Shown here: positions 4,522 to 57,700 of the stretch, piece by piece
How positions within the stretch are numbered: the stretch's first letter is position 1
Layout of the letters: the number at the start of each line of letters is the position of its first letter
NCBI GenBank assembly: GCA_026988975.1
Contig: JALSKH010000048.1
Span: 23,466 to 87,465 of the forward strand
Source of the DNA: Campylobacteraceae bacterium
Lineage (GTDB): Bacteria; Campylobacterota; Campylobacteria; Campylobacterales; Sulfurospirillaceae
DNA length: 64,000 nucleotides
Reading direction: 5' to 3'
Made by a program: the position numbers and the translations under genes
Notes under the pieces: model-generated
What the model saw: the letters and a program-made list of their open reading frames with translations, nothing else
Database searches by the model: none
What the model was told of the DNA's origin: nothing

Positions 4522-5818
4522 CGCTTCTCCTTTTATCTATCACTCGCACCGCTTTTCCTTCGCTTCTGATGATGGATTTTGGTGCTACAAGCTTGACATC
4601 TACATTTATATACAGATTGTTAAGCATCTTATGCTGTATTGATTTTTTTAAGCTTTCAAGTTCCCTGATGTTTTCACTCATAATGTTTTCATTTAACTCT
4701 ATGTCAATCATCAACTTATCCAAATACCCCTTTTTCTTGGCTATTATCTGATAATTTAGTGTAATTCCATCTATATTTGAGAGTACATGTTCGATTTGTG
4801 AAGGAAATACATTTACCCCATTTATCACGAGCATATCATCAGCTCGTCCAACTATACTCTCTATCCTGGCTAGCGTTCTTCCGCATTTACAAGGTGTTCT
4901 GGTCAAAGATGTTATATCCCCAGTTCTATATCTGATGATAGGAAGTGCCTGTTTGGATAAAGTGGTGACTACAAGCTCTCCTCTTTGTCCATCAGGTAAA
5001 ACTTCACCTGTTTTTGGATCGATGATTTCAGGGTAAAAGTGGTCTTCGTTGATATGAAGAAGAGAAGAGTGCTTACAGCTAGAAGCAACGCCAGGACCAA
5101 TTATCTCAGAGAGTCCATAAACTTCCACATAGTCGATTCCCCATATCTTTGATATCTCTTCTTTTAACCCTTTGCTAGCAGGCTCTGCACCAAAAAATCC
5201 AACTTTTAGATGAAAATCTTTTTCTATGTCATAACCCTCTGTCTCAGCAATTTCAGCCATATGAAGTGCAAAAGATGGAGTTCCTGTGATGGCAGTTGCC
5301 TTGAAATCTTTTAACAAAAGAAGTTGCCTAGAGGTAAAACCCGTTGAGCTTGGTATGACTGCTATCTTCATCCGCTCAGCTGCCGTATGAAATCCCAAAC
5401 CACCAGTAAAAAGTCCATAGCCAGTGGAGTTTTGGAGTATATCTTTGCTAGTTAACCCACCCATAGTAAAGACTCTAGCCATAACTTCACTCCAGACATC
5501 CATATCATGTTCTGTATATCCCACAACTGTGGGCTTCCCCGTGGTTCCGCTAGAGCTATGAATTCGCACGATTTGATCCATATCAACCGCAAAAAGACCA
5601 TAAGGATAGTTGTCTCTCAAATCCTGTTTTTTAGTAAATGGAAGTTTTGAGATATCCTCTAAACTCTCTATATCGCTAGGTTTTATGCCTAGTTTGTCAA
5701 ATTTTTCTTTATAAAAAGGTACTAAATTGTAAACTCTGATCAGAGTCTCTTTTAGTCTCTTAAATTGCAAAGAGGCTAGTTCATCTGCACATAGGCTTTC
5801 GTTTTTGCTATAAGTCAT
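4511..5818 (-). CDS. phenylacetate-CoA ligase family protein, paralog 2
   Basis: 435 aa with the adenylate-forming motif SSGTTGKPTVV and YRTGD. Roughly two-thirds identical by eye to the 6257-7555 product. Confidence 0.85.
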   Translation of the reverse strand: MTYSKNESLCADELASLQFKRLKETLIRVYNLVPFYKEKFDKLGIKPSDIESLEDISKLPFTKKQDLRDNYPYGLFAVDMDQIVRIHSSSGTTGKPTVVGYTEHDMDVWSEVMARVFTMGGLTSKDILQNSTGYGLFTGGLGFHTAAERMKIAVIPSSTGFTSRQLLLLKDFKATAITGTPSFALHMAEIAETEGYDIEKDFHLKVGFFGAEPASKGLKEEISKIWGIDYVEVYGLSEIIGPGVASSCKHSSLLHINEDHFYPEIIDPKTGEVLPDGQRGELVVTTLSKQALPIIRYRTGDITSLTRTPCKCGRTLARIESIVGRADDMLVINGVNVFPSQIEHVLSNIDGITLNYQIIAKKKGYLDKLMIDIELNENIMSENIRELESLKKSIQHKMLNNLYINVDVKLVAPKSIIRSEGKAVRVIDKRRSDEV

Positions 5819-6256: not shown

Positions 6257-7555
6257 TTATTGTCCCCTTTTATCTATTACTCGCACGGCTTTTCCCATGC
6301 TTCGCTCTATACTTCTTGGCTCAACCAGTTTGATTTTTGCATTTATGTATAGATTGTTTAAAAGCTCACCCTGAATCTTCTTTTTGAGATTTTCAAGTGC
6401 TCCTATGCTATCCATCGGCATTGAGTCATTTACCTCTACCATGATTTCCAAACTGTCAAGATACCCTTTTTTGTCCGCGATTATCTGATAATTTAGCGTA
6501 ATTTCTTCTATATTTGAAAGCACATGCTCGACTTGTGAAGGAAATACATTTACACCATTTACGATGAGCATATCGTCAGCTCTTCCCATAACACTTTTCA
6601 TCCTTACATGTGTTCGACCACATCTACAAGGAGTTTGGTCCAAGCTTGTGATGTCTCCTGTTCTGTATCTGATGATTGGAAATGCCTGCTTTGTAAGAGA
6701 AGTGATAACCAACTCACCTTTTTCGCCATAAGGTAAAACTTCACCTGTTTTTGAATCAATAATTTCAGGATAAAAATGGTCTTCAAATATATGAAGCCCA
6801 TTGTGTTCTTTACAGCTATTTGAGACGCCTGGTCCTATTATCTCGCTCATGCCATATATCTCATAATACTCTATATCCCAAACTTTTGCTACTTCCTCTT
6901 TTAAGCCCTCGCTTGTTGGCTCTGCTCCAAAGATACCGCATTTTAGTTTGAAATCTTTTCTCAAATCATATCCCTCTTTTTGTGCAACTTCAGCTAAGTG
7001 AAGTGCAAAAGAAGGGGTAGAAGCCAAGACTGTAGAGCCAAAATCTTTCATCAAAAGAAGCTGTCTTGAAGTAAATCCGCCTGAACTTGGAACTACTGTT
7101 GCTCCAACTGTCTGAGCACCATCATGAAGCCCTAAACCACCGGTAAAAAGCCCATATCCATAGGCATTATGTACGGTGTCTGCTGAGTTTACTCCGCTCA
7201 TAGTGTAGCATCTTGCCATCACTTCATTCCATACATCCATGTCACTTTTTGTGTATCCAACAACTGTGGGTTTGCCAGTCGTTCCGCTTGAACTGTGGAT
7301 TCTCACGACTGCGTCTTGCTCAACTGCAAAGAGACCAAAAGGATAGTTGTCTCTTAGATCCTGTTTTTTGGTGAAAGGAAGTTTGGATATGTCGTGGATT
7401 GATTGTATATCTTTGGGCATGATGCCCAACTCTTTGAACTTTTGCTTATAAAAAGGAACAGCGCCATATACTCTAGCGACTGTCTCTTTTAGTCTTTTGG
7501 TTTGTAATTTTTCCAACTCGTCACGAGTCAAAGTCTCATCCTTTGACCAAATCAT
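6257..7555 (-). CDS. phenylacetate-CoA ligase family protein, paralog 1
   Basis: 432 aa with SSGTTGKPTVV, YRTGD and a PaaK-like C-terminal domain. Confidence 0.85.
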   Translation of the reverse strand: MIWSKDETLTRDELEKLQTKRLKETVARVYGAVPFYKQKFKELGIMPKDIQSIHDISKLPFTKKQDLRDNYPFGLFAVEQDAVVRIHSSSGTTGKPTVVGYTKSDMDVWNEVMARCYTMSGVNSADTVHNAYGYGLFTGGLGLHDGAQTVGATVVPSSGGFTSRQLLLMKDFGSTVLASTPSFALHLAEVAQKEGYDLRKDFKLKCGIFGAEPTSEGLKEEVAKVWDIEYYEIYGMSEIIGPGVSNSCKEHNGLHIFEDHFYPEIIDSKTGEVLPYGEKGELVITSLTKQAFPIIRYRTGDITSLDQTPCRCGRTHVRMKSVMGRADDMLIVNGVNVFPSQVEHVLSNIEEITLNYQIIADKKGYLDSLEIMVEVNDSMPMDSIGALENLKKKIQGELLNNLYINAKIKLVEPRSIERSMGKAVRVIDKRGQ

Positions 7556-13499: not shown

Positions 13500-15371
13500 A
13501 TGAATTTTAAAAACAAAATAGCATTAGTTACATCTGTTATCGTCTTCTTGGGACTAAGTACATTTGGAGTGTTTAGTTATTATCATACTAAGCAAAGTAG
13601 TGTAGTTGAAGTTAAATCTTCAATAAAAGCAAAAGCAAAGAGTTTAGCACAATATATAGATTTGTGGTTACAAAATAAAAAAAGTTTAGTACAAAGCAGT
13701 GCAAAAGAGCTATGGTTAGCAAAAGGAATATCTGATGGAATGTTATCCACAAGATTAAAAAAATATTCAAAAAGAGTAGGGGCCATGAGTGCCTATATCG
13801 GCTTTATAGATGGACGAATGGTCTCTAGTAATGGAAAAAAATATAAGCTTTCTAAATATGATCCAAGATCAAGACCTTGGTACAAACAAGCGATGAAAAC
13901 AAAAAAAGTTGGGGTTACAAATGCATACAAAGGTGCTACTTCTGGAAAGATGATGATATCAATAATGACTCCATTGAAAAATAGAAATGGTGATGTTTTG
14001 GGAGTTTTTAGCACAGATATACTGTTAGACACTTTAACTAAAATCATTACAAATACAAAATTTGATGGTGGTTATGCGGTTTTATATGACAGCAAAGGAA
14101 CTATAGTTGCTCATCCAAACAAAAAGGTTTTAGGCAAAACCTCAGTTATTGCAAAAAGATTTAAAGGTTTGAACGATGGCTTGATAGAGTATAAATACAA
14201 AGGGGAAGATAAACTCCTTGCTTTCTATCGTACAAAACAGACAAATTGGATAACAGCAGTAACTTTTCAAAAAAAAGTAGCCTATAAATTTTTGCGAGAG
14301 CAGACTATCGGACTTTTGGTTCTTGGACTTATAATTTTAGTAATTACACTAATAATTATCATTGTTAGTACGAAAATTTTAATGAAGCCGCTTGATAATT
14401 TAAATACTTTGGTAGAAGAGATGGCAAGTAGCGAGGGTGATTTAAGACAACGATTAGAGGTGAAATCGAATGATGAGTTTGGAGAAGTTTCTAAAAACAT
14501 AAATAACTTTATAGCTAAACTACACGATATAGTCAAAGAATCAAAACAGATAAGTTTAGAAAATTCTGCTATATCAGAAGAGTTGTCTCAAACAGCATTT
14601 TCGGTTGGTAAAAATGTTGAAAATGAGTCTAAAATAGTCTCAAAAACTAGGGAAGAAGGGGTTGAGCTTAGTGACTATTTAGATAATTCTGTTAAGAAAG
14701 CAAAAGAGTCTCAACTTGAATTGGAAAATACATATAGCAGTCTCAATGAAGTTAAAACAAAAGTAGAAGAGCTTGGAAGTACAATGCAAGAGACTTCAGT
14801 TAAAGAGCAGAATTTAGCAGAAAAATTGAATCAAGTAAGTCAAAATGCAAGTGAAGTTAAAGAGGTTTTAAACATTATAAAAGATATAGCTGACCAAACT
14901 AATTTACTCGCACTAAATGCAGCTATTGAAGCAGCAAGGGCTGGTGAACATGGGCGTGGATTTGCTGTTGTTGCTGATGAAGTTAGAAAACTAGCAGAGA
15001 GAACTCAAAAATCACTTGTTGAGATTGATGCAACTATCAATGTTGTGGTACAATCAATCATGGAAGCGAATAGTGAGATATCAGATAATGCACATGATAT
15101 TCAAAGCATAGCGAATGTTTCTGCACATCTCCAAGAGCAAACTACGGAGATATCAAATGTGATTCATCAAGCCATATCTGATGCAAACCAAACGGTAAAT
15201 GATTTTTCAGATACTTCAACTAAGGTTCAGCAAATAGTTGCTAAAGTTGATAATGTAAACAATATATCAAAAAGTAATGTAGATAGTGTTGAAAATGTAT
15301 CTCAGGCTGCAAAACATTTACATTCAATGACAGAAAAATTAAACAGTGAGTTAGATAAATTTCGTTCATAA
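13500..15371 (+). CDS. methyl-accepting chemotaxis protein (dCache_1-type sensor)
   Basis: TM helix, about 250-aa periplasmic domain, second TM, HAMP, then the MCP signalling domain. ATG at 13500 is preferred over TTG at 13494. Confidence 0.9.
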
Positions 15372-24917: not shown

Positions 24918-25925
24918 ATGAAAAAACTTACTTCGATAGTAGTTGCAGGTGCATTTGTTGCTACTTCTTTGATGGCTGGCGAAATGGTAAAAGGTGATGG
25001 TTCTAGTTTTGTACTACCTATAAATCAAGCTTGGGCAAAAGCTTACTATAAAGCTACTGGCAAAAAAGTTCAGTACAATGGTGGTGGAAGTGGAAAAGGT
25101 ATAAAAGATTCTACTGCTAGATTGGTTGATTTTGGTGGAACTGATGCTCCACTTACTCCAAAAGCTCAAATGAAACACAAAATGTTACAGTTTCCTGCAG
25201 TTGTAGGTGCTACTGTTCTTGCATACAACCTTCCAGGTGTTGCAAATGAAGCTCTTAAACTAACAGACAAAGCTATCGTTGCTATTGCTATGGGAAAAGT
25301 TAAGTATTGGGATGATGCTATGCTTAAGGCTGTAAATCCAAATGTAAAACTTCCACACAAAAAGATCATCTTTGCAAGAAGAAGTGACGCAAGTGGTACT
25401 ACTTGGAACTTTACATACTTTCTAGCAAGTGTTAGTAAAGATTGGAGAAAAAATTATGGTGTTAAGAAAACTATCAACTGGACAAGCAATAATGTTGGTG
25501 GCAAAGGAAACCCTGGTGTTAGCTCAATCATCAAGCAAACTCCTTACTCTATAGGATATATTGAGTATGCTTATGCAGTTGAATCAAATGCAAAAGTTGC
25601 AGTTGTTGAAAACAGAGATGGTTATTTTGTTAAACCAGAGATGAAGACATTTCAAGCTGCAGCAGCTGGAGCTAACTTTGACCCTAAAAAAGGTTTTTAT
25701 ACAGTTATAGGTTATCCAAAGGGTAAAGACTCTTATCCATTGGTTGCTTGTCCATTTATAATTATGCCAAAAGAGAAAGTAGCAGCTGATAAACAAATCA
25801 CAGCATTTTATACTTGGGCTTATGATAATGGCGCAGATATAGCAAAAAAACTATACTATGTTCCACTTCCAAAAAGTGTAACTGATAAAATCAAAAAATA
25901 CTGGAAAGATAACGGAGTTAAGTAG
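24918..25925 (+). CDS. pstS: phosphate ABC transporter substrate-binding protein PstS
   Basis: Signal peptide, GSSFVLP and SDASGTT motifs. First gene of a pstSCAB-phoU array. Confidence 0.9.
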   Translation: MKKLTSIVVAGAFVATSLMAGEMVKGDGSSFVLPINQAWAKAYYKATGKKVQYNGGGSGKGIKDSTARLVDFGGTDAPLTPKAQMKHKMLQFPAVVGATVLAYNLPGVANEALKLTDKAIVAIAMGKVKYWDDAMLKAVNPNVKLPHKKIIFARRSDASGTTWNFTYFLASVSKDWRKNYGVKKTINWTSNNVGGKGNPGVSSIIKQTPYSIGYIEYAYAVESNAKVAVVENRDGYFVKPEMKTFQAAAAGANFDPKKGFYTVIGYPKGKDSYPLVACPFIIMPKEKVAADKQITAFYTWAYDNGADIAKKLYYVPLPKSVTDKIKKYWKDNGVK

Positions 25926-29208: not shown

Positions 29209-29879
29209 TTAATGCAAATATATTGATTATAGAAGATGAAGAGGATCTGCTTGAGCTACTAGAATATCATCTGCAAAAAGCTGGTTTTGGTGCAACTGGT
29301 TTTCTTTCTACTAAAAAAGTGGAAGAGATGATTTGTGAGGAAGATGTAGATTTGCTTATAGTTGATAGAAATCTCCCCGGTGTTGAGGGGAGTGAATTTG
29401 TTAAATATTTAAGAGATAAAGGGTACGAAATCCCTGCTATATTTGTAAGTGCAAAAGATAGCGATGAGCAGATAGAAGAGGGCTTTTTGCGAGGAGGAGA
29501 TGATTATATAACCAAACCTTACAACATAAATGAGCTAATCTTAAGAGTAAAAGCCATACTTCGCAGGACTTCTAGCAAAACAAGTGGTAAAATTGCATAT
29601 AAAGAGTTAGAGATTGACATAGATCAAAGAGAAGTTTTTGTGGGAAATGAAGAGATAGCTCTTAGTAAACTTGAATTTGATCTTTTACTCTATTTTATGG
29701 AAAACAGAGGAGTTGTTTTGGATAGAAACACTCTTTTGGAAGATGTTTGGAAAGATAAAGATTTCAAACAAGAAAAAACAGTAAATGTGACTGTGAACCG
29801 CCTTAGAAAAAAGATAGATCCTCAAAATCAAAAGTATTATTTAGAGTCGATCAGAGGTGTAGGATATAAGTTTTGTTAA
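29205..29879 (+). CDS. OmpR-family response regulator (PhoB/PhosR-like)
   Basis: Receiver domain (LIIEDEEDL...DLLIVDRNLPG) plus a winged-helix C-terminus (RGVGYKF). Lies in the pst operon context. Confidence 0.85.
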   Translation: MINANILIIEDEEDLLELLEYHLQKAGFGATGFLSTKKVEEMICEEDVDLLIVDRNLPGVEGSEFVKYLRDKGYEIPAIFVSAKDSDEQIEEGFLRGGDDYITKPYNINELILRVKAILRRTSSKTSGKIAYKELEIDIDQREVFVGNEEIALSKLEFDLLLYFMENRGVVLDRNTLLEDVWKDKDFKQEKTVNVTVNRLRKKIDPQNQKYYLESIRGVGYKFC

Positions 29880-31270
29880 GATTAAATCAGCTCTATTTTC
29901 GTAACTTTTTTCTTCTTTTTTTAGGCACAATTTTGGTTATATCAGCTTCTGGTTACTTTTTGCTAGAGAAGATAGAGATAAACAACCATAGATTGATGCT
30001 GAAAAATATGATAAATGAGTTTGTTTTAATGAATAATAAAACAACAGATATAAACTCTCTCATAGCTAAAATACACAAAAATACACAAGCTAGAGTAACA
30101 ATCATCGATAAAAATGGAGTCGTTAAGTTTGAGAGCAATAGATCTACAAAAGGGATGGAAAATCATCTCCATAGACCAGAAATAGAGCAGTCACTAAAAC
30201 ACGAATTTGGATCTAGCGTTAGGCATTCAGTGAGTGTTGGTGTTGATTTTTTGTATGTTGCAAAAAGGGTTGATGACCATTTTATACGCATGGCATATTC
30301 ATTGGGTCAGATAAAGAGTAAATTTTTAAGATTTTGGCTTACTACAATCGCACTTTTTTCATTGGTTTTGTTTGTGTCTCTGTTTATCGCTTGGAGGATA
30401 AATAAAAAGATAACTTTTGATCTTAAAGCCATAAATGAGAGTTTGGAAAATTTGCTAAAAAAGAATTATGAGAGAGATTTTAACTCTGTTAAGTGTTGCA
30501 AAGAGTTTGATATCATCTCAAAAAGGATAGAGAAAGTATCTAGAAGACTAGAAAAAAGAGACAAGCAGAAAAACAAATATACAAAAAAATTAAAAGAACT
30601 CAGTAAAAAGCAGGGAGATATCATATCTGCGATTAGCCATGAATTTAAAAATCCAATCGCAGCAGTCATGGGATACGCTCAAAGTGTTAAAGATGACGAT
30701 ATGCTAAGCCATGAGATAAGAGATAAATTTTTGGATAAAGTGATAAAAAATGCTCATAAGATTTCAAATATGATAGATAGATTGGCAATGGCTATCAAAT
30801 TTGAAAATGATACTTTTATACCAGAATTTTCAAAGTTTAAACTTCTAAGTTTAATTGAAGATGTAAAAGAGACACTTTTGCAAAAGTATAGAGGTAGAGA
30901 CATAATGATAGCCGTAGAAGATATCTATATAAATGCAGACAGAGTTATGTTTGAAAATTTACTTATAAACTTAATGGAAAATGCTCTAAAATATTCCGAG
31001 GACACTGTACATGTAGAGCTTAAAAATTCAGAACTATCTATCAACGATAGTGGAATCGGCATAGAAGAAGAGGACATAAACAACATAACAAAACGCTTCT
31101 TCAGAGTGGATTCGCTAACATGGGACAACTCCATAGGAGTAGGGCTATATATAGTAAAATACATACTAAAACTTCACAATAGTGAGCTAGAAATCAAAAG
31201 TAAAATTGGAGTAGGATCCAAGTTTTATTTTGATATAAAGTACCTAACCATAAGTAAAACCAACCAATAG
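29873..31270 (+). CDS. sensor histidine kinase (PhoR/PhosS-like)
   Basis: Two TM helices, H-box SHEFKNP, N, G1 and G2 boxes (NDSGIGI, GVGLYIV). The last 11 codons lie inside the left arm of element B1. Confidence 0.85.
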   Translation: MLRLNQLYFRNFFLLFLGTILVISASGYFLLEKIEINNHRLMLKNMINEFVLMNNKTTDINSLIAKIHKNTQARVTIIDKNGVVKFESNRSTKGMENHLHRPEIEQSLKHEFGSSVRHSVSVGVDFLYVAKRVDDHFIRMAYSLGQIKSKFLRFWLTTIALFSLVLFVSLFIAWRINKKITFDLKAINESLENLLKKNYERDFNSVKCCKEFDIISKRIEKVSRRLEKRDKQKNKYTKKLKELSKKQGDIISAISHEFKNPIAAVMGYAQSVKDDDMLSHEIRDKFLDKVIKNAHKISNMIDRLAMAIKFENDTFIPEFSKFKLLSLIEDVKETLLQKYRGRDIMIAVEDIYINADRVMFENLLINLMENALKYSEDTVHVELKNSELSINDSGIGIEEEDINNITKRFFRVDSLTWDNSIGVGLYIVKYILKLHNSELEIKSKIGVGSKFYFDIKYLTISKTNQ

Positions 31271-31507
31271 CAAAAAGATAATGGTGCGAGTACAAGGCAG
31301 ATTTTCGTAGGACTAGCCATAGCTAATTCAAGAAAATCTAACGCCGTAATCGTGCCATTATCTTTTTGTCCGAAGGAAAGTTAGTAAAACACTCATCTGC
31401 TGCGTTAGAAACTCTTGATGTACAATAAGTACACCTGCGAATTTCTGCCTTGCATATAAGTGCTTTACTAGCTTCTATTGGTTGGCTTTACTTATGGTTA
31501 GGTACTT
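31238..31507 (+). mobile_element. Family B structured MITE-like element, copy B1
   Basis: 33-bp terminal inverted repeats (31238-31270 and 31475-31507, one mismatch). The 204-nt core forms two long hairpins (31271-31368 and about 31373-31474). It shares motifs and spacing with B2. Confidence 0.8.
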
Positions 31508-32676
31508 AGCAAACTCAAAACTGATATATAGGGTATGAAGATCATAGAGCTTATAAATACTAAGTAGGTTACCACTGTTGGTTTGCAATCAAATAGACTA
31601 GCTAGACTTACATTTGTTATGGCTAGAGGCACTATTAGCTCTAGTATGGTGATATTTAGTGGTAGTTTTTCAAGATGAAAAAGATATAAAATCAGCCATG
31701 CTATCAGGGGAATGAGTAGAAATTTGAGAGATAGAACAGTGCTTAAAATTTTTACACTTATCTCTTTAAATTTTATACCTTTTAGAAATATACCAAGAAT
31801 TATAAGCTGCATCACAATTGCTGTGTATGAGCCCATCTCTAAAGTTTTATATAGGCTTACATTTAACTTTACATCTAGAAAGTTAAAAATTAAAGCGATA
31901 AAAGAAGCTCATATAATCGGCATTTTAAAGACATTTAATACCGACATTTTTATGCTGTAACTTCCTCTAGAGTATATATAAACTCCAACTGTATATACAA
32001 AAAGCATGCTTACTGTATTGATTAAACTTGTGTATATGATGGATGATTTTGAAAAGAGGACGATTCCAAGCGGTATGCCTATGCTTCCTGTTATGCCTGT
32101 TACGCTTGACATTGAGACTATCGATATATCTTTTGGATTGGTGAAGAGTCTCTTTGCGATACTACTCGAAACGATCAGTGCGATTAGTGTGATCAAAATA
32201 TATAAAAAAGGGACTTTTAAAATACTTATATCTATCTTTTGTGTTAATAACTGACCTTACGCACTATAAGCACACCTAGGCAGAATGAGAAAGTATCATA
32301 TGCGAGGCAGTTTGCTTTTAGCGTAGCCGTAGCTACGGTAGAAGTAAACTAACGAAGCAGATGGTGCTTTATCATTCTGCCCTACGGATGATAAAATTTG
32401 CACCCTACTGCTGCGTCAGCATAGCTTCATAGTAGTATAACTACAATTTTGCTATACTTCCTTGCATTAGAGTGCAACTTTTATCACCTAGGTGTGCTTA
32501 TAGTGCGTAAGGTCAGTTAATAATCCCCAAAAAGAGAGGGTTGGCAATAAGAAATAGACATTTAATTTTACGATACTTTTTTCATTCAGCTCATCTTTGA
32601 GTATAACTTTGGCAATGTACCCAATAAGCACAAAAAAATATATAGAAATGATAGAAAAAAAATTATCTAGAAAAAT
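31498..32676 (-). pseudogene. AEC (auxin efflux carrier) family transporter, disrupted
   Basis: The N-terminal part (32524-32676, FLDNFFSIISIYFFVLIGYIAK...LSFWGLL) and the downstream parts (31498-32243) are colinear once B2 and one TSD copy are removed. There is also an in-frame TGA at 31909-31911, and the conserved N-terminus has no ATG (only ATT at 32674-32676). Confidence 0.85.
32251..32516 (+). mobile_element. Family B structured MITE-like element, copy B2, inserted in the AEC transporter gene
   Basis: Perfect 30-bp terminal inverted repeats CTGACCTTACGCACTATAAGCACACCTAGG (32251-32280 and 32487-32516). Flanked by the direct repeat TTAATAA (32244-32250 and 32517-32523). Removing it restores the reading frame ...SFWGLLTQKIDIS.... 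Confidence 0.9.
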
Positions 32677-32732
32677 AGTTACTCCTTATCAAACTTCTCT
32701 TAAAAGAAGCTTGATAACATTTTACCAAATCT

Positions 32733-32748
32733 TGGAACATATATTGCT
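32733..32748 (+). promoter_or_regulatory. sigma54 (RpoN)-type promoter for flgI
   Basis: TGGAAC-N5-TTGCT, with GG and GC separated by 10 nt. The GC dinucleotide lies about 33 nt upstream of the flgI ATG. Confidence 0.65.
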
Positions 32749-32779: not shown

Positions 32780-33835
32780 ATGAAACTACTTATTTCCATT
32801 TTATTTCTGTTTTTAAATATCTCTTTTTTGCAAGCCGAAAAGATAAAAGATATAGCAAATATCATAGGTGTTAGAGATAACCAACTCATTGGTTATGGTT
32901 TGGTTGTTGGATTAAATGGCACAGGTGATGGAAGTTCTTCAAAATTTACTCTACAATCTTTATCAAATCTACTTCAAACCGTAAATGTCAAAATCGCTCC
33001 TGCAGATATAAAATCAAAAAATATAGCTGCCGTCATTGTTACAACAAAACTCCCACCATTTGCAAGACAAGGGGATAAATTAGATGTTGTTATCTCTTCC
33101 ATAGGCGATGCAAAATCTCTTCAAGGCGGTACGCTTTTGATGACTGCTTTAAAAGGAGTTGATGGAAAGATATATGCACTTTCTCAAGGCTCTGTAACGA
33201 TTGGCGGAATGAATGGCAAAGGTGGAGGACAGGCAAATCACGCAACAAATGGCGGTATATTTAGTGGGGCTATCGTTGAGAGAGATGTGGCGTATGATAT
33301 ATATGATCAAAAATTTGCAAATCTAAGTTTAAAAAAATCAAACTTTAATACTGCTGTAAATATTCAAAAGGCGATAAACTCTTTTTATGACGAAAAGATA
33401 GCAACTGCGTTGGATCCCCGAACAATAAGATTGGAAAAACCTAAAGATATGTCTATGGTAGAGTTTCTTGCAAAAGTACAAAATATAGATGTAAAATACC
33501 AAAAAGAGGAGAAGATAGTCATAGATGAGAGAACAGGTACGATAGTCAGTGGTATAAATATACATGTAAGTCCTGTTATCATAACTCATGGTGATATAAC
33601 CATAAAGATAGAGCCTAGAAAAAATATTTCAAACAGTAAAAATGGTGTAAATATGAAAGATGGTGTAAGCATAGCGGTAAACCAAAATCAACTGAATATG
33701 AAAACAGATGAGATAACAGTGGCAAACATAACAAGAGCCCTACACAAGTTAGGTGCCAAACCAAAAGATATAATTTCGATTTTGGAAAACATCAAAAGAG
33801 CAGGTGCGATAGACGCAAAGTTGGAGGTGATATAG
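32780..33835 (+). CDS. flgI: flagellar P-ring protein FlgI
   Basis: Signal peptide MKLLISILFLFLNISFLQA, then IKDIANIIGVRDNQLIGYGLVVGLNGTGD. The 32597 start in the ORF track would add a non-homologous extension across the promoter. Confidence 0.9.
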   Translation: MKLLISILFLFLNISFLQAEKIKDIANIIGVRDNQLIGYGLVVGLNGTGDGSSSKFTLQSLSNLLQTVNVKIAPADIKSKNIAAVIVTTKLPPFARQGDKLDVVISSIGDAKSLQGGTLLMTALKGVDGKIYALSQGSVTIGGMNGKGGGQANHATNGGIFSGAIVERDVAYDIYDQKFANLSLKKSNFNTAVNIQKAINSFYDEKIATALDPRTIRLEKPKDMSMVEFLAKVQNIDVKYQKEEKIVIDERTGTIVSGINIHVSPVIITHGDITIKIEPRKNISNSKNGVNMKDGVSIAVNQNQLNMKTDEITVANITRALHKLGAKPKDIISILENIKRAGAIDAKLEVI

Positions 33836-39323: not shown

Positions 39324-39403
39324 AGACTTCTTTTAAAACTATTTCTTAGAGGGTAAATCCTCCCGTTGGTCTGAGCCTCACGAAATAGTTTTAAAAGAAG
39401 TCT
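39324..39403 (-). repeat. Family A hairpin element, copy A2
   Basis: Perfect 21-bp stem (39324-39344 with 39383-39403). Its 38-nt loop is the reverse complement of the A1 loop with one substitution. Confidence 0.85.
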
Positions 39404-57614: not shown

Positions 57615-57700
57615 TGGTACCTGAGGCCGGACTCGAACCGGCACGAGCAAAGCTCACAAGATTTTGAGTCTAGCGCGTCTACCAGTTTCACCACTCAGGC
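57615..57700 (-). tRNA. tRNA-Leu (anticodon CAA), type II with a long variable arm, CCA encoded
   Basis: The reverse complement reads GCCTGAGTGGTGAAACTGGTAGACGCG-CTAGA-CTCAAAA-TCTTG-...-GCCGGTTCGAGTCCGGC-CTCAGGT-A-CCA. Acceptor and T arms pair. The anticodon loop is CU-CAA-AA. There is one U-U mismatch in the anticodon stem. Confidence 0.9.

Follow-up and report, generated by a model that had tools for sequence, protein, structure and literature searches.

The sequences known as ERIC (enterobacterial repetitive intergenic consensus) have been used for strain typing for more than 30 years and are described as limited to enterobacteria and vibrios. ERIC is a MITE (miniature inverted-repeat transposable element) of 127 bp with terminal inverted repeats, a target duplication and TA at both termini (PMC3184786, PMC2229807), and it has been reported from the Enterobacteriaceae and the Vibrionaceae (PMC10969869). 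For Yersinia it has been proposed that ribosomes translating into the left repeat of an ERIC copy lay open a site for RNase E, which makes the mRNA upstream less stable (PMC2229807, PMC10969869). The Correia/NEMIS elements of Neisseria are co-transcribed with their neighbours, and their long terminal duplex is a substrate of RNase III (PMC10969869). Here we describe two repeat elements, B1 and B2, found in a 64,000-nt stretch of DNA (the window, to which all positions refer) from an uncultured member of the Campylobacterota, Campylobacteraceae bacterium (GenBank assembly GCA_026988975.1, contig JALSKH010000048.1, positions 23,466 to 87,465 of the forward strand). B1 and B2 are most probably non-autonomous, TA-flanked MITEs belonging to a very widespread superfamily with ERIC, also called IRU, as its known representative.

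B1 spans positions 31238-31507 (270 nt). Its 33-nt terminal arms, 97% complementary and 204 nt apart, were re-found where a preliminary description of this DNA had placed them (Table 1), and the conserved blocks reported there were all located again in both elements: AGGCAG at 31295 in B1 and 32305 in B2, CTAACG at 31338 and 32349, CTGCTGCGT-N-AG at 31397 and 32408, together with TAGCC-N-TAGCTA and CCTTGCAT-N3-AGTGC. B2 lies at 32244-32523, with arms of 37 nt (32244-32280 and 32487-32523) that are also 97% complementary. Both strands of B1 and of B2 are predicted to fold into the same Y shape, made up of a long terminal stem, two hairpins of about 100 nt and a tiny central hairpin. The free energies lie between -120 and -148 kcal/mol, and comparison with dinucleotide shuffles gives z-scores from -14 to -18. 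The spaced motif AGGCAG-N30-60-CTAACG occurs three times in the 64-kb window, against 0.08 occurrences expected.

Each element consists of a terminal stem around two inverted copies of one module of about 100 nt: in B1 as well as in B2, the plus-strand sequence of hairpin 1 aligns with the minus-strand sequence of hairpin 2. The module runs in the order stem, (G)CRAGGMAG, inner stem with apical hairpin, CTRACG-N-AGCAG, stem, so that 5' (G)CRAGGMAG and 5' CTRACG-N-AGCAG face each other as an asymmetric internal loop; at their apex, the B1 modules have TAGCCATAGCTA or GTGTACTTATTGTACA. Because the modules are inverted copies, either strand of an element shows one sense module, and owing to this dyad symmetry B1 aligns to B2 about equally well in both orientations (199/266 identities in one, 191/259 in the other). 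The complementarity between AAGGCAG and CTGCCTT (31446-31452), for which a tertiary or alternative pairing had been proposed, is no separate feature of the element; it is a trivial outcome of hairpin 2 being the reverse complement of the hairpin-1 module.

Two models of the module were used for searching: R1, built from 29 modules, none of which came from the window, its close relatives or enterobacteria, and R2, a model of the long form that also contained no window sequences. R1 matched the window exactly four times, twice in each element, in the predicted orientations and at 35-78 bits. R2 recovered three of these four modules at 23-45 bits and gave just 10 bits (E 0.17) to the fourth (31272-31370). 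The best-conserved module of the window is module 2 of B1. One additional R2 match, at 25569-25687, lies in the coding sequence of a phosphate-binding protein, has a fold z of -1.2 and was rejected as chance.

The module pattern, run against a set of genomes with one for each species, returned at least 114 loci, and a scan of metagenomes with a pattern specific for the short-form apex returned at least 119 further loci. Together, the two pattern scans provide at least 230 related loci, almost all of which are non-coding repeats of 110-330 nt. Hosts in the genome scan include Gammaproteobacteria (Halomonas, Rheinheimera, Alteromonas, Pseudomonas, Pantoea and Buttiauxella), Lachnospiraceae and other Clostridia, Chthoniobacter (Verrucomicrobiota), Victivallales, Planctomycetota, Saccharibacteria, Paceibacterota, Endomicrobiaceae, Treponemataceae and Campylobacterota. 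About ten of the genome-scan matches form no hairpin and are probably due to chance; the remainder fold with a recurring signature around the motif. Many members of the family are Y-shaped like B1 and near 270 nt, and others are single hairpins of 110-125 nt. The Halomonas repeat unit, present in at least 15 copies at 97-99% identity, is about 270 nt long; in Rheinheimera the unit spans 166-315 nt, and units of about 165 and about 180 nt recur in a Lachnospiraceae genome and in Chthoniobacter, respectively. Among the 84 listed metagenome elements with a measurable flank, 52 are 260-289 nt long. The metagenome elements form at least six groups of unrelated terminal repeats, including the types of B1 (TA/AGTACCTAACC, the slash marking the element boundary) and B2 (TA/ACTGACCTTACGC), and the double layout of inverted modules with fixed spacing is present in Rheinheimera and in the Campylobacterota.

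Viral contigs contained no match to the strict module pattern and plasmids none to B1 or B2. Rfam 15, searched at gathering and permissive thresholds with the window and at least 17 loci, held no family for the element. Literature searches on the motif strings returned nothing relevant, and found no description of MITEs in Sulfurospirillum, Arcobacter or Sulfurimonas. A 79-nt minimal motif hairpin was seen near both ends of a 14.6-kb metagenome contig (L180:299-346 and 14526-14573; L170), which may represent the terminal overlap of a circular molecule.

The preliminary description had based its claim of conserved loops within covarying helices on B1 and B2 alone and had allowed that the blocks might not be conserved beyond this pair; they hold far beyond it. 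With just two sequences the statistics were weak, which left room for the view that B1 and B2 are merely diverged duplicates whose compensating changes arose by chance. This view is now hardly credible, as hundreds of independent relatives keep the pairs by means of double changes and shuffled and slid controls score far lower. In the module alignment all variable pairs covary, with a score of 0.617 against 0.18 in the shuffled and slid controls. Across 34 full-length elements, 92.6% of cells are standard pairs, compared with 60% after shuffling and 37-47% after sliding. Double-sided changes affect 84 of the 93 pairs of the full Y element, a value as high being reached in 0 of 500 shuffles, and the outer stem covaries in 31 of its 31 pairs. 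Since the loop blocks are conserved family-wide, far beyond B1 and B2, while the helices covary, the earlier proposal that the internal loops are recognition sites is plausible. The central mini-hairpin, CCC-NNN-GGG, is nearly invariant among the 34 elements; its loop occurs as the reverse-complement pairs GAA/TTC, TAC/GTA, AAA/TTT and ATA/TAT (alignment A6, columns 143-151), and it looks as if this centre may be placed either way round with respect to whichever module is better conserved.

Of the two strands, the more stable is the module sense strand in 73 of the 81 unique modules for which the strands differ. By our own tally, the module stem contains about 61 G·U against 14 A·C, and in the full elements G·U occupies 15-21% of cells in the motif hairpin (hairpin A); in the terminal repeat, and likewise at the base of hairpin B, its share is about 2%. 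We read this as two layers of constraint: at the DNA ends the inverted repeats are kept exact, and in the motif hairpin the constraint is on a folded single strand, of RNA or possibly of single-stranded DNA. G·T is also tolerated in single-stranded DNA, and the strand bias therefore cannot separate the two.

TA is found at both ends in 91 of 125 distinct insertions and in 14 of 125 control windows placed 20 nt further out. In the Halomonas copies the bases outside the TA vary, C-TA-G being the most frequent arrangement. B2 is flanked exactly (TA at 32247-32248 and 32518-32519) and reads TA/ACTGACC...GGTCAGT/TA. At B1 the flank is one base off, with TA at 31236-31237, an extra A at 31238 and TA at 31507-31508, giving TA-A/AGTACC...GGTACT/TA; most B1-type copies have no extra A at this junction, and the relatives at L083 and L089 carry an exact TA at both termini. 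Given TA flanks throughout the family, the earlier statement that no target duplication is detectable, and that the insertion is hence an older one, is unsupported. B2-type copies have moved recently: B2 is 92.9% identical over 268 nt to a copy at a different, non-orthologous locus of a Sulfurospirillum metagenome-assembled genome (L089:6794-7061). Between these two genomes, identity reaches only 66-82% for genes in synteny and for RNase P RNA, and 70-76% for flanking genes. In Pseudomonas spp. (L016, L112, L047, L051), one TA-flanked long-form element occupies an orthologous position with flanks about 90-96% identical; this is an old fixed copy, not a recent insertion.

Movement as a single-stranded DNA hairpin, after the manner of REPINs or of IS200/IS605-derived palindromes and with a Y1/HUH transposase reading the hairpin loop, would suit several of these observations, since the two inverted hairpin modules resemble a REP doublet, the recognition feature is the folded loop and not the termini, the terminal sequences vary freely provided they pair, and GTAG...CTAC is frequent in the apical stem. 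We nevertheless consider it unlikely. Y1-mobilised elements are not known to have terminal inverted repeats or target duplications. TA ends combined with long, near-perfect terminal inverted repeats are the signature of ERIC- and IS630-type MITEs (PMC3184786). Furthermore, the loop and the tip of the element are between about 21 and 57 nt apart, a spread that fits hairpin-guided cleavage poorly, and no Y1 transposase gene was found near any fetched locus.

The link to ERIC comes from the enterobacterial members of the family. The Pantoea and Buttiauxella matches lie upstream of a tRNA-Gly array, the E. coli counterpart of which is the glyV-glyX spacer, and carry the ERIC core; they are genuine ERIC elements. 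The 44-mer made up of the two ERIC-PCR (polymerase chain reaction) primer sites has exact matches in every one of the 5426 complete E. coli genomes, the median number of places per genome being 9. In alignments, a canonical ERIC copy from the E. coli ybhJ-ybhI spacer (L116:109-232) reaches 75.7% over 115 nt with the Buttiauxella element (E 1.6e-19) and 70% over 121 nt with the Pantoea element. The Buttiauxella and Pantoea copies both contain the exact family motif in the same structural position and match R1 and R2. The 157-nt glyV-glyX spacer of E. coli (L115:1195-1317), between two tRNA-Gly genes, is itself an ERIC copy; it falls outside the search pattern and matches R2 at E 2.4e-4. The ERIC core GGAGCUUAC...GUAAGUGAC has its counterpart in the long-form apex, GGAG-NNUAC...GUANN-UGA, of members from Pseudomonas, candidate phyla and Clostridia. 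The canonical E. coli copy also matches Rfam family RF02818 V_AS5 (Vibrio RNA AS5) with 46 bits (E 3e-9; gathering score 96), and Rfam thus holds a Vibrio ERIC-type repeat under another name.

Several results weigh against placing B1 and B2 among TA-inserting relatives of ERIC. The canonical E. coli copy is not significant with either R1 or R2, so the ERIC link is a chain and not a direct match: the homology of B1 and B2 to ERIC is indirect, by way of models shared with the Pantoea, Buttiauxella and E. coli glyV-glyX copies and not with L116. B1 and B2 show no V_AS5 match even at E values up to 10, and the ERIC core with the PCR primer sites (GAGCTTAC...GTAAGTGAC) is absent from both. As no empty site for an individual element was recovered among the fetched loci, we infer duplication of the TA, as opposed to TA being part of the element, only from the variable outer flanks and the ERIC literature. 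No transposase or recurrent partner gene was found near the approximately 230 loci; clustering of open reading frames (ORFs) at the at least 114 genome-scan loci grouped only generic paralogs (ABC ATPases, response regulators, kinases, GGDEF proteins and chemoreceptors). A long-range inverted-repeat search of the approximately 230 loci revealed no autonomous element with matching repeats and yielded only two independent copies around argS-rsfS. The orientation of modules relative to flanking ORFs, from crude ORF calling, shows no clear bias (11 co-oriented, 24 anti-oriented). Moreover, the terminal repeats differ wholly between subfamilies and the internal loop is constant, the reverse of the usual transposase-defined MITE family. 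A transposase that reads the ends cannot explain a conserved loop, which therefore points to a shared RNA-level function or to a factor that reads structure.

It is possible, if not the likelier outcome, that the family is primarily a structured non-coding RNA gene or cis-acting RNA element that serves the cell, for instance as a platform to which a universal protein or a nuclease binds, and that was spread by transposition and in which selection keeps the loop and not mobility. The conservation of the loop across phyla while all helices covary would follow naturally, as would the enrichment of G·U on the sense strand of the motif hairpin, the steady length of about 265-285 nt in Gammaproteobacteria and Campylobacterota, the single-copy element at orthologous positions in several Pseudomonas species and the match of an ERIC copy to an Rfam family defined from a Vibrio transcript. 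Set against these are one to dozens of copies per genome in unrelated contexts, an orientation without bias relative to neighbouring genes, the absence of promoter or terminator evidence and the lack of a match to any known RNA family or motif.

More speculatively, the motif hairpin might be the heritable unit of ancient, pan-bacterial structured mobile elements of which ERIC is the enterobacterial branch, with the loop read by a trans-acting factor; we put this forward with considerable reserve. The loop could be read as RNA or as single-stranded DNA, and the factor could be universal or stem from an unrecognised mobilisation system. The element ends would be set by pairing and not by a sequence-specific transposase, and the terminal repeats would therefore be free to change while the loop stayed fixed from Saccharibacteria to Campylobacterota.

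If B1 and B2 are MITEs of the ERIC superfamily, as we consider most probable, a transposase acting in trans and of the IS630/Tc1-mariner kind would cut at the repeat ends, insert the element at TA and duplicate the TA. Read-through from flanking genes, suggested by the G·U bias and the ERIC papers, would produce a B1 RNA with a Y-shaped fold of very high stability, and the loop that is conserved may serve as the recognition site for a trans-acting factor. Ribosomes ending at the kinase stop codon could melt the 33-bp outer stem and free the right arm, as in the proposal for Yersinia ERIC. A nuclease acting on the freed arm of B1 would have to differ from RNase E, which Campylobacterota are not known to possess.

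The kinase ORF (29873-31270, plus strand) has its stop as the last codon of the left arm of B1, and a minus-strand, AEC-like ORF (31498-31836) stops inside the right arm, in agreement with the preliminary description, according to which both convergent genes end in the arms. That description went on to state that the insertion had rewritten both 3' ends. This holds for the kinase, whose last approximately 10 residues come from the arm, and is overstated for the AEC gene, which keeps the end of its profile and gains just about two codons and a stop from B1. The usual junction, TA/AGT ACC TAA, ends an incoming ORF after two codons, which is exactly what the AEC ORF shows. The extra A at 31238 shifts the frame of the kinase tail to K-Y-L-T-I-S-K-T-N-Q, and the shifted tail retains a leucine conserved in at least 90% of aligned orthologues. 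Positions 31501-31836 match Pfam Mem_trans (PF03547, the AEC family) from 239 to 342 of 343, the C-terminal third; the ORF upstream of it gave no match, and a full gene would not fit into the space available.

The best relatives of the kinase occur in Sulfurospirillum and Campylobacteraceae metagenome-assembled genomes. In the closest relative of the kinase operon (L117, spacer at 6396-6451), flgI follows 56 nt after the kinase gene, with no B1, AEC remnant or B2 between them, which bears out the earlier claim that B1 is an insertion. In the window, the kinase-flgI spacer (31271-32730) extends over about 1.4-1.5 kb and holds B1, the AEC remnant, B2 and about 200 nt more. The absence of all three pieces from the closest relative, together with the exact bracketing of the AEC remnant by B1 and B2, would be expected if the two elements were the ends of one composite transposon that brought the AEC gene into the spacer. 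This is very unlikely, however. The terminal repeats of B1 and B2 are unrelated (AGTACCTAACC and ACTGACCTTACGC), so that one transposase would hardly use both, each element has its own TA flanks, and other relatives carry different genes after the kinase, the junction thus being simply variable. At another locus (L142:2737-3008 and 5201-5470), an inverted pair of B2-type elements surrounds the housekeeping genes argS and rsfS, and bracketing of genes therefore arises from independent intergenic insertions. The reading of B1 and B2 as mobile elements of the ERIC kind would explain the 1.4-kb expansion of the locus between a phosphate-regulon kinase and flgI, and the presence of two ORFs that end in repeats.

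Table 1. Coordinates of B1, B2 and the adjoining features in the window
Feature	Position	Strand	Evidence and remarks
Left flanking TA of B1, putative target duplication; extra A at 31238 next to it	31236-31237		Sequence; B1-type relatives read TA/AGTACC...GGTACT/TA
B1 left terminal inverted repeat, 5' strand of outer stem	31238-31270		Carries the last 10 sense codons and stop of the kinase
B1 module 1: stem, CAAGGCAG, apical hairpin TAGCCATAGCTA, CTAACGCCG, stem	31270-31371	+	Model R1, 35.5 bits, E 1.7e-7; fold
Central mini-hairpin TCC-GAA-GGA at three-way junction	31369-31377		Predicted fold
B1 module 2: ATGCAAGGCAG ... CTAACGCAGCAG	31375-31475	-	R1, 77.5 bits, E 2.8e-19; R2, 45.2 bits
B1 right terminal inverted repeat	31475-31507		Includes the stop of the AEC-like ORF, 31498-31500 (- strand)
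Right flanking TA of B1	31507-31508		T31507 also pairs with A31238; TA flanks family-wide
Decayed AEC-family (Mem_trans) transporter gene between B1 and B2	31498-32243	-	Neighbour, outside the element
B2, other terminal-repeat subfamily: TA/ACTGACCTTACGC...GCGTAAGGTCAGT/TA	32247-32519		Sequence, inverted repeats
B2 module 1	32280-32382	+	R1, 63.4 bits, E 2.4e-15
B2 module 2, degenerate motif AAGGAAG ... CTGACGCAGCAG	32386-32487	-	R1, 50.4 bits, E 1.1e-11

Elsewhere in the locus, a sigma-54-type promoter (TGGAAC-N5-TTGCT, 32733-32748) that is conserved in L117 lies upstream of flgI, with its start at 32780, so that the ORF called from TTG 32597 extends too far. Within the window, Rfam identifies nothing besides an RNase P RNA (class A, 258 bits) and one tRNA (639-1069 and 57618-57700). 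Short, near-perfect palindromes at 2681-2774 and 39324-39403, with arms of 29 and 22 nt and a spacer of 36 nt in each, gave weak, stem-driven R1 scores only and probably belong to another repeat family described earlier.

If the ERIC link holds, the same hairpin module is carried by small TA-flanked repeats of many phyla, including organisms with very small genomes. Hundreds of lineages would then be available to define the invariants of the family (the loop, the mini-hairpin and the double form of about 270 nt), and these would also serve a search for the enzyme by phylogenetic profiling and a test of a role at the RNA level.

Some candidates were considered and dropped. An integron attC site, in which R'' (RYYYAAC) pairs with R' (GTTRRRY) and some bases are extrahelical, does not fit, as CTAACG does not pair with any GTTAG within its hairpin and instead faces AAGGCAG as an internal loop. 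IS110 bridge RNAs have variable loops and conserved stems, the opposite of the B1 family, and for a retron non-coding RNA there is no reverse transcriptase. T-shaped terminal repeats like those of adeno-associated virus, single-strand origins of rolling-circle plasmids and signal recognition particle RNA were likewise discarded for poor fit, and a likeness between the loop strands and part of 16S rRNA was dropped because the pairing partners differ.

Among known systems, the REPIN, a doublet of REP sequences, resembles B1 in that two inverted hairpin-forming units make a larger hairpin and pairing drives evolution. REPs are, however, 20-40 nt long, lineage-specific and tied to a RAYT gene, and have neither TA flanks nor long terminal repeats, both of which the B1 family possesses; no recurrent neighbouring gene that could play the part of a RAYT was found at the fetched loci. 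MITEs derived from IS630/Tc1-mariner elements (RUP of pneumococcus, Stowaway-like elements) share with the B1 family the TA target, terminal inverted repeats, a size of 100-300 bp and the lack of coding capacity. Their conserved terminal repeats match a resident insertion sequence (IS), whereas in the B1 family the repeats vary and the internal folded loop is conserved, and no IS matching the repeats of the element was found in the approximately 230 fetched loci. The Correia/NEMIS elements are TA-flanked MITEs too, but they are confined to Neisseria and have no relation to B1 in sequence or motif. Rfam V_AS5 is matched by the canonical E. coli ERIC and not by B1 or B2.

The closest system is ERIC/IRU/RU-1 (MITEEc1). 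Like the members of the B1 family, it is a non-coding, imperfect palindrome that is intergenic, present in multiple copies and bordered by TA at both termini, and its layout is that of the B1 module: AAGGC(A/G) and AACGCAGCA are the two loop strands, with the inner stem between them and the outer stem enclosing both. Neither ERIC nor the B1 family has a known transposase. ERIC is a single hairpin of 127 bp, whereas B1, with its 270 nt, joins two short-form modules in inverted arrangement to a central mini-hairpin and an outer stem of 33 bp, and its host, an uncultured member of the Campylobacterota, is outside the Enterobacteriaceae and Vibrionaceae. B1 therefore agrees with ERIC sensu stricto in the TA at its termini and departs from it in size and single palindrome, in the core with the PCR sites and in host range. 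It has the general properties of a MITE, being small, free of ORFs and present in multiple copies, with terminal inverted repeats and evidence of movement. We class as new the two-module form of the ERIC kind, about 270 nt in length, outside the known host range.

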